A DNA stretch of 64,000 bases from an uncultured candidatus Porisulfidus sp. (GCA_965215765.1 OZ244118.1:1101007-1165006), one strand, 5' to 3'. Shown: positions 52,244 to 61,783, counted from the first letter of the stretch. Program-made: numbers and translations. Notes: generated by a model from the letters alone, not told the origin.

Positions 52244-52407
52244 TCTGAGATTTAGAGAAAACTGTAAAGGGTACACGAGGCGGTCTTTCTCTGGCATAAG
52301 ATCTTTAGCGTTTTTGCCAAGCCGCCTCTTTTATATAACTGAGGAGCTGTTATTGGGACTGTTTCTGCAGAAGTCGGGATGGGGCTGCCGTCATGGCTTC
52401 CGGAAAG

Positions 52408-52873
52408 CTACAATCGTTTCTGGTTTCTATACAGGAAAAGTTGCAGGGAATTCCTCTTCCGCATAATAAAGTTTGACATCATCGCAGGACTGGTTCCCGG
52501 CACTGCCGGTAAATCCTTGATAAAACTTCTGGTGACACTGACCACTTGCTCTTCGATCAGGAATGATTTGCCCTCGTTTCCCGCCTTGGGATTGATTCGT
52601 TTGAGATAGTACCTGCCGTTACGGTTGATGAAGCCAAGGTCAATAACGGACAGCTTTTCCCGTTTATTTTTTTCCAGCAAATAGCTTGGCTCAACATTGG
52701 TTTTTCATCAGATTGGCTGTCAAGCCAACGCTGCAGGCGTCTGTACTTATGCTGGTTTCCAGCCAGAACTGCGAAAGTGAAAACTTAAGCTCCGTGAAGC
52801 GCCGACGAAGAAAATCATGGTCGATCCAACTCAGCAAGGCACCAGCGCGTGGCTCGCTCGTTCTGCTGTCCAA
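52408..52873 (-). pseudogene. Frameshifted copy of the lysK 3' end (last ~150 codons) carried along in an array duplication.
   Basis: ORFs 52408..52680 and 52691..52873 match the LysK C-terminus (...GPRAGALLSWIDHDFLRRRFTELKFSLSQFWLETSIS... / ...INPKAGNEGKSFL.EEQVVSV.RS.IKDLPA.PGTSP). Confidence 0.8.
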
Positions 52874-53326
52874 GTGGTGCTTTTCGGTGATGACCGACTT
52901 TTATCCACCTGCTTTTTCCTGTGCAAACGGCACCCGGGTGACTCAAGGATTCAAAAGCCAGAGTTCCTAAACGGGATAAAGAAGGTGGTTTTGTCGCTCG
53001 AAGCAGGCGGAAAATTGGATGTTATGGGTTTTTCAGGTTACAATGGTTACCAATCGGTATTGGAGCGATGGGTTCAGGTTCGAGCCGACATGAACAAACG
53101 GAGGTAGGGAAACTGTGTGTGGAATGACTGTTTTAATGCGTGAGCAGCCACTTATTCTTTACGTTCCGGTCTGGGAAAGGTGGCAAGAAGGGTTAAGAAA
53201 TATTGAGCACCCATGCTTGATAGTCAATAATTTTATTACGGTCGGAAAAGGCCGTTTTTCGGGTTGCAGAAGTGTGCTCGAATTGCGTTGGCCACACTTT
53301 GTGGCTGTAAATTGTTACAGGAGGTC

Positions 53327-58252: not shown

Positions 58253-59709
58253 TGGCAAACAGTGTTGGGAATTTATTTACGAAGTACTCGGCTACTTACA
58301 GTAAAGCTGGTGAAGAAGACGCGGGTCGCGTGCCACTGAATCCAAAGGAGCTAAAAAAAGCGTCTCGAAATGAACTGCGTGGTTTAGAAGGGGATGCTCT
58401 TCGCATTAGCAAGCGTGGTGGTAATTTTCTGGATCGCGTTATGTGCTGGATTGAAGACCGTGTTTTTTCGCTTACGCGCAGCGACCACCCGGATTCAAGA
58501 CGGCAATCGCAAAGCAAGGAATTTTCTGAAGATGTTAAGAATGCACTCACAGAAATAGGCGTGGACACCGAAGGAGTAGACGAACACCAACTAATGAAGC
58601 AAATAAAATCTGTTCAGGTGCGTGATTTGCCGCTGCGCTCAGGTTTTGTTCAATCCATTCTTCGGGGAGTCGCGTCACTGGAAAATGGCAGCGGGAAGGA
58701 CAGGCTGCCAGAAATTGCCAAAGCGGCGTTTTCGGAAACTGACACGGGTTCCCCTGCACAGGCTCTAGTTTATCAGGATGCTTTGCCTGAGCGTGATCCT
58801 GAACCAGAACAGGTGGTAACAAATACGAGCGATAACGGTCATGACAAGAGTGGGCATCAAACCCCGGTCCATGGCGATGAGTCTGTCAGAAATGACCCAA
58901 AATTGTCTTCCGAAACGGTAGGGGAAACTCATAAAGCCGATGGGAAAAAACTTGCAGATCTGACTAGTGCTGAGTTCACTGAGAGGCTTTGCCAACAGAC
59001 GAAAGGGATTTTTAGTATACATTTGGATGCCGAGTTGAGGACGAGCGGTCGTAATATTACCCAGGAACAGCGCGAAGAAATTGTTAGAGGCGCGACTTTG
59101 GAACTTGCTAGTTTAAGATTCCCATCAGATGAAGGGCATGACCCTATTTCTGGCACCATGGCGTACGCGAAAGAATGTGAAGAAGCCCGACATGAAGAGA
59201 GTAAGGGACGGGGTAGAAATTTATCTGCGGCTAAAATTCAAGAAAAAGTGTTTGTTGATTTAGAACTTAAAATAGGGGATCATGATCGGTTTAAAGCCTA
59301 TGTTTCTGCACGTTTAGACGAATTAGAGGGAGTTGAGTCTATTGGGATCGATCAGCCAGATTCTGCGGCCAAAAAGGCAGCAACAGAAGCTTTTACGGAG
59401 AAACTTGAAAAAAGGAGATATGGAGCTTGTAGTGTGCAAGCTGCTGCCTTTCGTGTTATTCGTGAGGCAGGACCTGATCTTGATGCGAATTCATCTGATA
59501 AGGCAACCAAGGAACATTTATATGGGGAAACATGGCAACGGCACAAACAAACTGCGACACAAATTTTTTCTAAACATTATGATTCCGCAGCAGAGAAAAG
59601 TAGTGATATTCCGTTTAAAGAAATAGATAAAGCCACCATGGAGGACTTTATTCCGTTATTCAGACAGGAATTTGAAGGTGTCGTGAAGAAGCTGGTCGAT
59701 AAAGTTTAG
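58249..59709 (+). CDS. Family-B paralog B9 (486 aa). It is the copy adjacent to the intact lysK and likely the progenitor of the B6/B8 units.
   Basis: Full ORF with the N-domain, the FTERLC module and the C-domain. Confidence 0.7.
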   Translation: MMANSVGNLFTKYSATYSKAGEEDAGRVPLNPKELKKASRNELRGLEGDALRISKRGGNFLDRVMCWIEDRVFSLTRSDHPDSRRQSQSKEFSEDVKNALTEIGVDTEGVDEHQLMKQIKSVQVRDLPLRSGFVQSILRGVASLENGSGKDRLPEIAKAAFSETDTGSPAQALVYQDALPERDPEPEQVVTNTSDNGHDKSGHQTPVHGDESVRNDPKLSSETVGETHKADGKKLADLTSAEFTERLCQQTKGIFSIHLDAELRTSGRNITQEQREEIVRGATLELASLRFPSDEGHDPISGTMAYAKECEEARHEESKGRGRNLSAAKIQEKVFVDLELKIGDHDRFKAYVSARLDELEGVESIGIDQPDSAAKKAATEAFTEKLEKRRYGACSVQAAAFRVIREAGPDLDANSSDKATKEHLYGETWQRHKQTATQIFSKHYDSAAEKSSDIPFKEIDKATMEDFIPLFRQEFEGVVKKLVDKV

Positions 59710-59884
59710 AGAAAACTGTAGAAGGGCACACGAGGTGGTCTTTCTATGGCATAAGATTTCCAGCGTTATCTTTGCCAAGCCGCCTCTGTTATACAACTGA
59801 AGGGCTGTTATTGGGACTGTTTCTGCAGAAGTCGGGATGTGGCTGCCGTCATGGCTTCCGGAAAGCTACAATCGTTTCTGGTTT

Positions 59885-61783
59885 CTATACAGGAAAAGTT
59901 GCAGGGAATTCCTTTTCCACATAATAAAGTTTGACATTATTGCCGGGACTGGTTCCCGGTATTGCCGGTAGATCCTTGATAAGACTTCTGGCGACGCTGA
60001 CCACTTGCTCTTCGCTCAGGAATGATTTGCCCACGTTTCCCGCCTTGGGATTGATTCGTTTGAGATAGAACCTGCCGTTACGGTTGATGAAGATAAGATC
60101 AATAACGGACAGTTCTTCCCGTTTATTTTTCTTCCAGCAAGTGGCTAGGCTCAACATTGGTTTTTCGTCAGATTGGCTGTCAAGCCAACGCTGGCAGGCG
60201 TCTGTACTTATGCTGGTTTCCAGCCAGAACTGTGAAAGCGAAAACTTGAGCTCCGTGAAGCGCCGACGAAGAAAATCATGGTCGATCCAACTCAGCAAGG
60301 CACCAGCGCGTGGCCCGCTCGTTCTGCCCAGAAGAGTGACGTAAATCGCCTGGAAGGCCAAGTCTGGAGGCAGAGGTGTGGCTCTGGCGGTATCGAAAAC
60401 AAGTTTTTGCAATTCGCTGTCCTTGCCCGCCTTCTCAGGGATTTTGTGAGCCAACAACCTGAGAAACCCTACTTGCGCTGCAGACAAGTCAAGTGCTGAA
60501 TCAGGGAGCTTTTCTTGCAACTCTATGCGCTCCCGCTCTTCGGCAAAGTGATGGAGCCAGTAGCTCACTGCACTCAGCCGTTGCAGTAGTTCGGCTCTTT
60601 GCGTTTCTGTCAGTGGTGCTTCATTTCTTTTTTCCACTTCCCTGATTGGGTCGACGTGTGGTAGTTGTTTCAAAGCCACGAGCAATTGAAAGTCTGTTGT
60701 GCAAAAGGTGTTCCTGGGCGGGTCGGACTGGATCAGGTGGGCTAAAAGCTTGTCGCTTTGGGTTGTTTTGTCATGCTGTACTTTCAGCAACAGGGCATCG
60801 TACTCGTTGAACAATTTGACGATGTAATCAAACTCGGTAGAGAAGTTCACGGTTTTTTTTGCATGAGTACGTATCATCAGATAACGCAACAAATCGGGGG
60901 GCAGAAAGGACGCCATCCTGCCAGCAGACACACCGACTCCCTTTGAGGAACTCATTTTTTCACCGCCCCACAAAAAGAATTCATAAGGAACATTTAGAGG
61001 CGGCTGCTTGTCGAAAATTGTTCGGTAGCAGGCGTTCGCTATGTCGCGAGCACCTCCCTTGGTGCAATGGTCTTTACCTGCGCCTTCGATAGTGGTTCCT
61101 AAATGGTGCCATTTTGCAGTCCATTCCAGTTTCCAAGGCAACTTCCCCGCCCCGTCGAAAGGCGAGCATTTGCCACTGTAGCCACAGCCGCTTGCCCAGC
61201 TGACCCAGTCTTTACGACAGTGGTATTCAACCTCCCCATTTTCGTAAGCTGTGACTTCAGTGGTGGCAATCCGGGCGCAGTTTTCGCAAACCACTTGAAA
61301 CGGGTGCCACTGTTTGCCGCGTTTTGTGCCACTGACTTCGGAAAAAATTTTACGAATCTCGTGTGCGCGGCTCAAAATGAGGTCAATGCTTTCATTCAAC
61401 GCCCCGTTACTGTAAAGGTCACTCATTCGGTAAATTTCAGCCCTGACTCCGAGGCGCGGAAAAATATCGAGAAACTCAGCTATGTAGTGTTCAGCGAAAC
61501 TTTTCTTATCCGACCCCGGCGGGGGAGGAACTCTGGCAAGAGGAACCCCCATGTAGTTGCGGAGTTCTGGTGTGGAATTTTCAGCCAGGTCATCCAGTGG
61601 GTCCAGGTCGTCTACGCCAAAAAAAAATTTCGCAGGGACTCCCCGCATGTGCAGAGCCCGCAGTATCGAATCGTGTATCAGCACACCACGGAGTGAGCCG
61701 ACATGTACTGTCCCGGAAGGCGTTTTGGAATCGCAGATGACCTGCGCTTCGGTTAGCCTGGCAGTAATTTTTTCAACCCACAT
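59885..61783 (-). CDS. lysK: Class I lysyl-tRNA synthetase (LysK-type), 632 aa.
   Basis: TPSGTVHVGSLRG resembles the class I LysRS HIGN-type motif. KMSSSKG is the class I LysRS KMSKS variant. The overall sequence resembles archaeal and spirochaete LysRS. Confidence 0.8.
   Translation of the reverse strand: MWVEKITARLTEAQVICDSKTPSGTVHVGSLRGVLIHDSILRALHMRGVPAKFFFGVDDLDPLDDLAENSTPELRNYMGVPLARVPPPPGSDKKSFAEHYIAEFLDIFPRLGVRAEIYRMSDLYSNGALNESIDLILSRAHEIRKIFSEVSGTKRGKQWHPFQVVCENCARIATTEVTAYENGEVEYHCRKDWVSWASGCGYSGKCSPFDGAGKLPWKLEWTAKWHHLGTTIEGAGKDHCTKGGARDIANACYRTIFDKQPPLNVPYEFFLWGGEKMSSSKGVGVSAGRMASFLPPDLLRYLMIRTHAKKTVNFSTEFDYIVKLFNEYDALLLKVQHDKTTQSDKLLAHLIQSDPPRNTFCTTDFQLLVALKQLPHVDPIREVEKRNEAPLTETQRAELLQRLSAVSYWLHHFAEERERIELQEKLPDSALDLSAAQVGFLRLLAHKIPEKAGKDSELQKLVFDTARATPLPPDLAFQAIYVTLLGRTSGPRAGALLSWIDHDFLRRRFTELKFSLSQFWLETSISTDACQRWLDSQSDEKPMLSLATCWKKNKREELSVIDLIFINRNGRFYLKRINPKAGNVGKSFLSEEQVVSVARSLIKDLPAIPGTSPGNNVKLYYVEKEFPATFPV

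Follow-up and report, generated by a model that had tools for sequence, protein, structure and literature searches.

Tandem amplification in bacteria has an established two-step mechanism, in which an illegitimate join is followed by homologous propagation of the repeat. Concerted evolution by gene conversion is known from bacterial multigene families, such as tufA and tufB in Salmonella and surface-antigen families in which conserved flanks enclose variable cores. Bacterial amplifications with microhomology or no homology at their join points have been reviewed (PMC11721125). The subject of the present analysis is an array of orphan genes, termed family B, which lies beside lysK, the gene for a class I lysyl-tRNA synthetase (LysRS), in a stretch of 64,000 nucleotides from an uncultured candidatus Porisulfidus sp. 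(GCA_965215765.1 OZ244118.1:1101007-1165006; the whole stretch is referred to as the window). Fragments of the 3' end of lysK are found inside this array, and they are likely to be the join-point relics of tandem segmental duplication at its lysK-proximal end.

The locus resembles the bacterial tandem amplifications described in Salmonella and Acinetobacter models (PMC11721125), including A. baylyi cat (PMC9997567), in its head-to-tail units with one novel b/a junction common to all copies, in the short imperfect homology at the join, in the truncated gene at internal junctions together with one intact gene at the end, and in unit-sized copy-number differences between close strains. Laboratory amplifications are unstable and selected, whereas the copies described here are old, fixed, diverged and mosaic, and one of them (frag1, below) has decayed. 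Furthermore, the gene cut by the junction is in this case an essential aminoacyl-tRNA synthetase. As in families that evolve in concert, the flanks of the B genes are homogenised (93-99% identity in the leader, 92-99% in the spacer and lysK fragment) while the C-terminal gene halves are divergent, with a ratio of nonsynonymous to synonymous divergence (dN/dS) of ~1, and the differences between strains are tracts which match paralogues. Unlike in such families, there is no sign here of dedicated recombination machinery, of silent cassettes or of an expression site, and part of a housekeeping gene serves as one homogenised flank, so that the functional lysK tail joins the exchange. A further likeness is to the truncated relics at the edges of segmental duplications, in which a partial, non-functional copy of a neighbouring gene marks the boundary and keeps ancestral states. 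The usual edge relics differ from those seen here, where several generations derive from one gene in one array (~55 and 443 nt of lysK), with ~140 and ~170 nt in the sister species.

Fragments of lysK within the array

The repeated segment, present three times in the window, runs from a B-gene stop codon across a 175-nt spacer and through the last 443 nt of lysK. In the native copy (59705-60327), B9 (58249-59709, plus strand) and the intact source gene lysK (59885-61783, minus strand; 632 residues) are convergent, tail to tail, and the 175-nt spacer which occurs in every copy of the repeat runs from the B9 stop to the lysK stop (59710-59884). The source segment itself (59885-60327, minus strand) encodes LysK residues 486-632. 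The copy after B8 (57165-57789) is 96% identical to the native copy over 628 nt. It comprises a spacer copy (57175-57346) followed by frag2 (57347-57789, minus strand), which differs from lysK by 6 substitutions and no indels and retains an open frame: its 147 lysK codons lie within an open reading frame (ORF) of 149 residues that begins at a TTG (57347-57796). The copy after B6 (52251-52866) is 92.8% identical to the native copy over 623 nt. Here the spacer copy (52244-52426) precedes frag1 (52427-52866, minus strand), which is frameshifted, with 27 substitutions and three 1-nt deletions relative to lysK. BLAST E-values of 0 for the copies exclude chance. Both fragments hold lysK codons 486-632 only, and the full gene is found solely at the outer end of the array, at 59885-61783.

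The presence of lysK 3' fragments inside the array is thus confirmed. The initial annotation, made from the sequence alone, had placed them after B8 as an intact reading frame and after B6 in frameshifted form and had described them as near-identical to the gene at the nucleotide level; the alignments bear it out on both counts. Its coordinates were right to within 7-19 nt, the ends given at 52873 and 57796 overshooting the junction by 7 nt, and 52408 being the end of the frameshifted ORF, 19 nt beyond the original stop codon at 52427-52429.

Several related contigs were available for comparison. L002 derives from a near-identical strain (8x coverage), while L005 (19x), from the same sample as L002, represents a strain which is 99.4% identical in lysK-gmk. 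L001 and L004 belong to a sister metagenome-assembled genome (MAG), that of a Candidatus Oxydemutatoraceae bacterium (OZ243039.1, 1.92 Mb), and L003 to a genome of 2.0 Mb.

The repeat unit nearest lysK (57790-60327, plus strand) is 2,538 bp long and comprises leader, B9, spacer and 443 nt of lysK. Self-comparison by BLAST matches 55242-57789 with 57780-60327 at a period of 2,538 bp, in direct head-to-tail orientation, and the spacings between copies are 2,535-2,538 bp. The duplicated segment starts ~460 nt upstream of the B start codon and ends 443 nt inside lysK. A unit of leader, 'effector' gene and adjacent 3' part of lysK had been proposed at the outset; it holds, with the spacer included, but the label 'effector' is unsupported, since family B is an orphan family with no credible Pfam domain.

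B8 (55714-57174, plus strand) is interrupted by a premature TAG in frame (56797-56799). It is 97-99% identical to B9 in the N-terminal half, while in the C-terminal half the synonymous divergence (dS) from B9 is 0.24 and the nonsynonymous divergence (dN) 0.35. The split gene (~360 and 98 residues) is also called in L002 and L005, so the truncation is shared and is not a sequencing error. Upstream of frag1 lies B6 (50777-52243, plus strand), and B7 (53327-54697, plus strand) is situated between the two fragment-bearing units. The 5' half of B7 is 93-95% like B8 and B9; the 3' end and the spacer that follows it match the B5 type, without a lysK fragment. Spacer-only relics after B7 (54705-54763 and 54990-55066) flank a partial tandem copy of the B5-type 3' end (54821-55114 versus 54521-54815, 83.6% identity), itself a join-point relic in the array.

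A junction common to both fragments

Both fragments end at the same breakpoint (52866/52867 and 57789/57790), where the upstream part of a B leader follows directly on lysK position +443. Copy 2 of this junction, designated J (57782-57800), reads ...CGTTCTGC up to the breakpoint and T ATCCAAGTGG beyond it; copy 1 (52859-52877) reads ...CGTTCTGC followed by T GTCCAAGTGG. The J string CGTTCTGCT[G/A]TCCAAGTGG is found at 52859 and 57782, and the native lysK site once, at 60320. Across the breakpoint, lysK passes from ...GCTCGTTCTGC into CCAGAAG, the fragments pass from ...GCTCGTTCTGC into T[G/A]TCCAAGTGG, and the fragment-free spacers from ...ACTCGCTTTTGCCT into GTCCAAGTGG. Since both fragments carry an identical J, a single illegitimate event is indicated, with the second copy of J made by a homologous process. 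The parental homology at J pairs GCTCG-TTCTGC in lysK with ACTCGCTTTTGC in the spacer. Of the 13 positions adjoining the breakpoint on its left, 10 are matched between the parental sequences, with one indel; among 200,000 random position pairs, a fraction of 6e-4 reach this degree of matching. No match to J was obtained in a scan of Joint Genome Institute (JGI) metagenome contigs.

The source gene and the polarity of transfer

The product of lysK matches the Pfam family PF01921 (tRNA-synt_1f) with an E-value of 6.5e-84 and 282 bits, against a gathering cut-off of 27, and its residues 12-509 align to a solved class I LysRS structure (PDB 1IRX, E = 2.8e-47); by these criteria lysK encodes a genuine class I LysRS. 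Its orthologues in the sister genomes are 90% (L001/L004) and 77% (L003) identical. Residues 486-632, the part represented in the fragments, correspond to the end of the canonical core and an accessory C-terminal domain of ~120 residues. This accessory domain can be aligned in orthologues from 90% down to ~48% identity, including that of Nitrosococcus oceani. Its conservation in distant LysK orthologues means that the fragments derive from lysK, and rules out the reverse polarity, in which the array would have given lysK its tail. A search with the 149-residue C-terminal piece alone returned no matches, which reflects a word-index limit, as the full-length query retrieved orthologues bearing the domain. 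The AlphaFold2 model of the accessory domain (predicted local distance difference test score, pLDDT, 76) gave no fold match in the PDB at E <= 0.001 and is uninformative on function.

Since the split from frag1, lysK has acquired 15 changes in its 443-nt tail, 11 nonsynonymous and 4 synonymous. The tail (59885-60327) has as many changes since the split as its pseudogene copy frag1. In the comparison of the window with L001, omega is 0.38 for the lysK tail and 0.14 for the core. Small as the counts are, the changes in lysK hint at weak constraint on the accessory domain in this lineage. In L002, a 1-nt deletion in an A-run of lysK (11880-11917) replaces the last 9 codons (protein P0001); this may be a homopolymer error in a low-coverage (8x) contig.

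Relative age of the fragments

Changes in the 443 lysK-derived nucleotides were polarised with the L001 orthologue as outgroup. Thirteen derived changes are common to lysK and frag2; frag1 has 10 of its own, frag2 has 3 and lysK has 2. The rooted order of the copies is best given as (frag1,(frag2,lysK)), the B6 copy having parted from lysK before the B8 copy. The private changes in frag1 are spread over the three codon positions as 4/2/4, and this spread, together with the three frameshifts, indicates that frag1 has evolved neutrally. On this polarisation, frag1 is a fossil which keeps 13 ancestral lysK states lost from the present gene. The earlier proposal that older copies show more decay is true in so far as frag1 parted first and is frameshifted, but ~15 of the 27 differences between frag1 and lysK, over half, are changes in lysK itself.

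Mosaicism and gene conversion

Between the B8 and B9 units, identity is 97-99% through the leader and the 5' half of the gene, drops to 62-82%, with indels, in the 3' half and over the ~70 nt of spacer that follow, and returns to 97-99% in the distal spacer and fragment. The corresponding dS between B8 and B9 is 0.03-0.05 in the homogenised parts versus 0.24 in the C-terminal half. Positive selection alone was rejected as the cause of the divergent C-terminal halves, since dS is also ~10 times higher there than in the flanks. Among B1-B9, the nearest neighbours switch between successive 250-nt segments, and seven of the nine genes aligned (B1, B3 and B5-B9) share one leader segment at 93-99% identity. 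This non-coding leader segment of ~250 nt lies upstream of each B start (for example at 58040-58290 and 55505-55755), and the segments neighbouring it are 67-90% identical. The conserved leader is either strongly constrained or constantly homogenised; the ~250-nt segment has no match in Rfam.

The differences among the window, L002 and L005 cluster in the repeats. From the B8 3' end across the spacer into the beginning of frag2 (56972-57433), 27 of 35 alternative strain states are equal to the B9-unit paralogue. The first ~100 nt of the spacer after B8 resemble the frag1 copy in the window and the lysK-adjacent copy in L002 and L005. That the strain differences fall in tracts matching paralogues points to gene conversion. 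Since the copies are mosaics which exchange sequence, dating by divergence is unreliable. Thus the suggestion that the copies be dated in this way fails, as B8 and B9 have flanks 1-3% apart and yet a C-terminal dS of 0.24.

Unit-sized differences between strains

The window and L002 each contain two copies of J, L005 contains one and L004 none. Both fragments are found in L002, and the B6 fragment in L005; this same arrangement in independent assemblies shows that it is not an assembly artefact of the window. Collinearity between L005 and the window extends to 57789, where L005 passes directly into full lysK, so that it is without exactly one 2,538-bp unit (57790-60327). Its lysK tail equals the frag2 of L002 at all diagnostic sites, and shares with frag2 four derived states that are not in the lysK of the window. 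These sequence comparisons suggest that L005 probably arose by a crossover deletion between frag2 and lysK, in which case its functional lysK tail would descend from a former fragment.

Older relics and the sister species

Relics of earlier events were also recognised. After B1, a stretch at 36683-36907 consists of spacer and ~55 nt of the lysK 3' end, ~72-72.8% identical to the native copy, and a relic after B3 (43278-43513) that lies inside a 3.4-kb segmental duplication is 97% identical to the B1 relic. A weak match after B2 (39652-39704) aligns 53 nt with the last ~50 nt of lysK (73.6%, E = 7e-5). The B1 and B3 relics are equally distant from the native copies of the window and of L001, and so are probably at least about as old as the species split. 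L004 has two additional 342-nt units in tandem between the last B gene and lysK, each made up of the last 42 nt of a B gene, spacer and ~140 nt of lysK, and another copy with ~170 nt of lysK lies between two B genes. These junctions inside lysK in L001/L004 (~140 and ~170 nt) differ from J. The comparison supports the view that duplications ending in the lysK tail occurred several times in this clade. Repeated tandem duplication ending inside lysK, as first envisaged, is consistent with the ~55-nt relics and the L001/L004 junctions, but not with the two 443-nt fragments, which share a single J.

Mechanism and alternative explanations

The proposed mechanism begins with lysK as the donor of 443 nt, which were duplicated along with a B leader and gene and the 175-nt convergent spacer. 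J would have been made by a single illegitimate join where the parental sequences share a short imperfect homology, and homologous unequal crossing-over or gene conversion between existing repeats would then have produced its second copy. Recombination between the repeats goes on and has homogenised the leaders, the 5' gene halves and the spacer-plus-fragment flanks, the C-terminal gene halves staying divergent, and contraction by a frag2-lysK crossover would probably account for the shorter array of L005. Duplication mediated by an insertion sequence (IS) or transposon was rejected. By Pfam, no transposase domain was present in the scanned B ORFs (B3, B5, B6, B7 and B9) or in the frag2 ORF, and no terminal inverted repeats bound the unit, the inverted repeats within 52000-60400 being only short ones of 75-79% complementarity.

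Several points weigh against this reconstruction. No single duplication series fits the data, as B7 and its B5-type flank sit between the J-bearing units; the simple series of one unit assumed in the initial annotation must be given up for the same reason. Duplication of a two-gene unit, with B7 a chimaera of B9 and B5, would account for the order of the genes, but no two genes should then be closer to each other than B6 and B8. This candidate was rejected because that is not seen: the C-terminal dS is 0.55 for B6-B8 versus 0.24 for B8-B9. Microhomology, for which a look at the junctions had been suggested, is represented by the imperfect 10/13 patch (P ~6e-4), but the perfect match to present-day spacers at J is only 1-3 nt. 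The RecA dependence of the propagation step is inferred. L002 and L005 come from one sample, and at 8x and 19x some of the conversion-like tracts of L002 could be consensus cross-talk. Finally, L005 is only probably derived and may be ancestral. After repeated conversion, the exact series of events is irrecoverable from these data. The initial interpretation was thus right in outline, as to the unit, the donor, the relative order and the recurrence, and wrong as to independent breaks, a simple series and datable decay.

If the L005 arrangement, with B8 beside lysK, were ancestral, the B9 unit would have been copied from the B8 unit very recently, its C-terminal half having later been replaced from another paralogue, and frag2 would be young. 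Such a history fits the mere 6 differences in 443 nt between frag2 and lysK, the 97-99% identity of B8 and B9 in the leader and 5' half and the very existence of L005 with its single J. It needs, however, an unseen donor for the C-terminal half of B9 (dS 0.24 to B8) and a second for the window-specific 3' end of B8, and no B9-like donor was found among the 23 clusters of the family; moreover, the four derived states common to the L005 lysK tail and frag2 are explained by a one-step frag2-lysK deletion. This order of events is possible but doubtful. Gene conversion could also have pasted the second J-bearing fragment into an existing spacer, the spacer serving as left arm and the leader as right arm, so that the number of fragments would not equal the number of duplications. 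Conversion tracts between strains do cross the B 3' end, spacer and fragment, and the stretch frag1-J-leader-B7 5' half matches frag2-J-leader-B9 5' half continuously at 93.6% over 1.78 kb, in contrast to the far more divergent genes B6 and B8 on its left side. Against this, the transfer of a 443-nt heterology by conversion is in general rarer than unequal crossing-over, and the strain polymorphism observed is the gain or loss of whole units, which makes such an origin of the second fragment unlikely.

Assembly is difficult for 2.5-kb repeats that are 90-99% identical, and L002 has a coverage of only 8x; the fragments might on these grounds be suspected of being mis-joined repeats and not real. 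As the same junctions occur in three contigs from separate assemblies (window, L002 and L005), and as a mis-join could not create the 27 substitutions and 3 deletions that belong to frag1 itself, this suspicion deserves hardly any credence. It is also very improbable that the fragments are kept for a function, whether as 3' untranslated region or terminator of the B genes, as antisense template against the lysK mRNA tail or, for frag2, as a free-standing gene for the accessory domain. The frag2 frame is indeed open in the window and L002, a read-through RNA from B8 would be ~98.6% complementary to the lysK 3' end, and the spacer is retained after most B genes. With only 3 private changes, however, an open frame in frag2 is expected by chance without selection, and its dN/dS of 0.71, on 7 changes, has no power, while frag1 has three frameshifts and changes evenly spread over codon positions. 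B5 and B7 have no fragment, and L005 lacks frag2 altogether. Searches of the spacer and fragment against Rfam and for tRNAs gave no match, and their fold is not significant (z-scores -1.4 and -0.2). The spacer itself contains no terminator-like site, the counts of promoters and terminators being equal to those in shuffled sequence; a weak minus-strand hairpin is present inside the lysK-derived part. Nothing in these results thus speaks for a function of the fragments: the open frame of frag2 is explained by its recent synchronisation with lysK, and frag1 decays neutrally.

The array, its host and its surroundings

The host genome is that of a sponge-associated sulfur-oxidising gammaproteobacterium. 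Candidatus Oxydemutatoraceae is placed in the Chromatiales (NCBI taxonomy), and dsrEFH-dsrC genes are found near the locus. The slot of the array is syntenic between the window and L004, with purK-purE on one side and lysK-gmk on the other; the array comprises 10 genes over ~30 kb in the window and 5 genes over ~10 kb in L004. In large protein collections family B is represented by only 14 clusters at 90% identity and 23 at 50%, all of them unnamed and confined to the clade, and a scan of genome contigs with the B alignment retrieved the sister MAG OZ243039.1 only. Between the B proteins of the window (29609-59709) and those of L004 (5902-15665) there is no one-to-one orthology, and the N-terminal dS is ~0.35-0.45. 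The C-terminal halves have a dN/dS of ~1 between the two species, in a comparison in which the dS of LysK is 0.2. Family B evidently turns over much faster than its housekeeping neighbours.

Other repeats are present in and around the array. A 3.4-kb segmental duplication (35626-38994 and 42224-45588, 95% identity) has copied the B1 3' end with its relic and B2 as the B3 3' end with its relic and B4. B1 and B3 also agree at 94.8% identity in their leader and 5' parts. The array contains repeat units of a higher order. The B4 region (45400-47900) contains nested tandem repeats of ~272-275 nt and a 0.6-kb pair which is 98.5% identical, and its reading frame is fragmented; the part corresponding to 45583-46967 of the window is ~190 nt shorter in L005. 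Beyond lysK, at 63076-63957, four tandem units of 210-211 nt, 83-100% identical, contain ORFs with a 'ELEHRGRGRGQNNLS' motif. Differences between the window and L002 cluster here as well, which suggests turnover of these repeats between strains. In L003 (5340-6368 and 17485-18803), four tandem DsrH genes and three tandem helix-turn-helix (HTH) genes were noted, and IS (rve) elements lie between lysK and the B homologues. In this clade, tandem duplication appears to be frequent.

Implications

The mechanism proposed here is a textbook one, and the value of the locus lies in documentation and method and not in a new concept. It carries a caution for other repeat families, namely that the divergence of duplicates does not equal their age while the copies still exchange sequence. 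It is conceivable, if improbable, that the lysK tail and the fragments form one recombining pool, in which each expansion or contraction of the array can swap the copy attached to the functional gene, as seems to have occurred in L005, and that antisense read-through from B8 could couple expression of the array to lysK. Were the pool to exist, the last 147 codons of an essential synthetase would partly drift as a neutral fragment, leading to faster evolution of the accessory domain. The fragments themselves provide a base-resolved record of the growth and shrinkage of a lineage-restricted gene array in a sponge symbiont.

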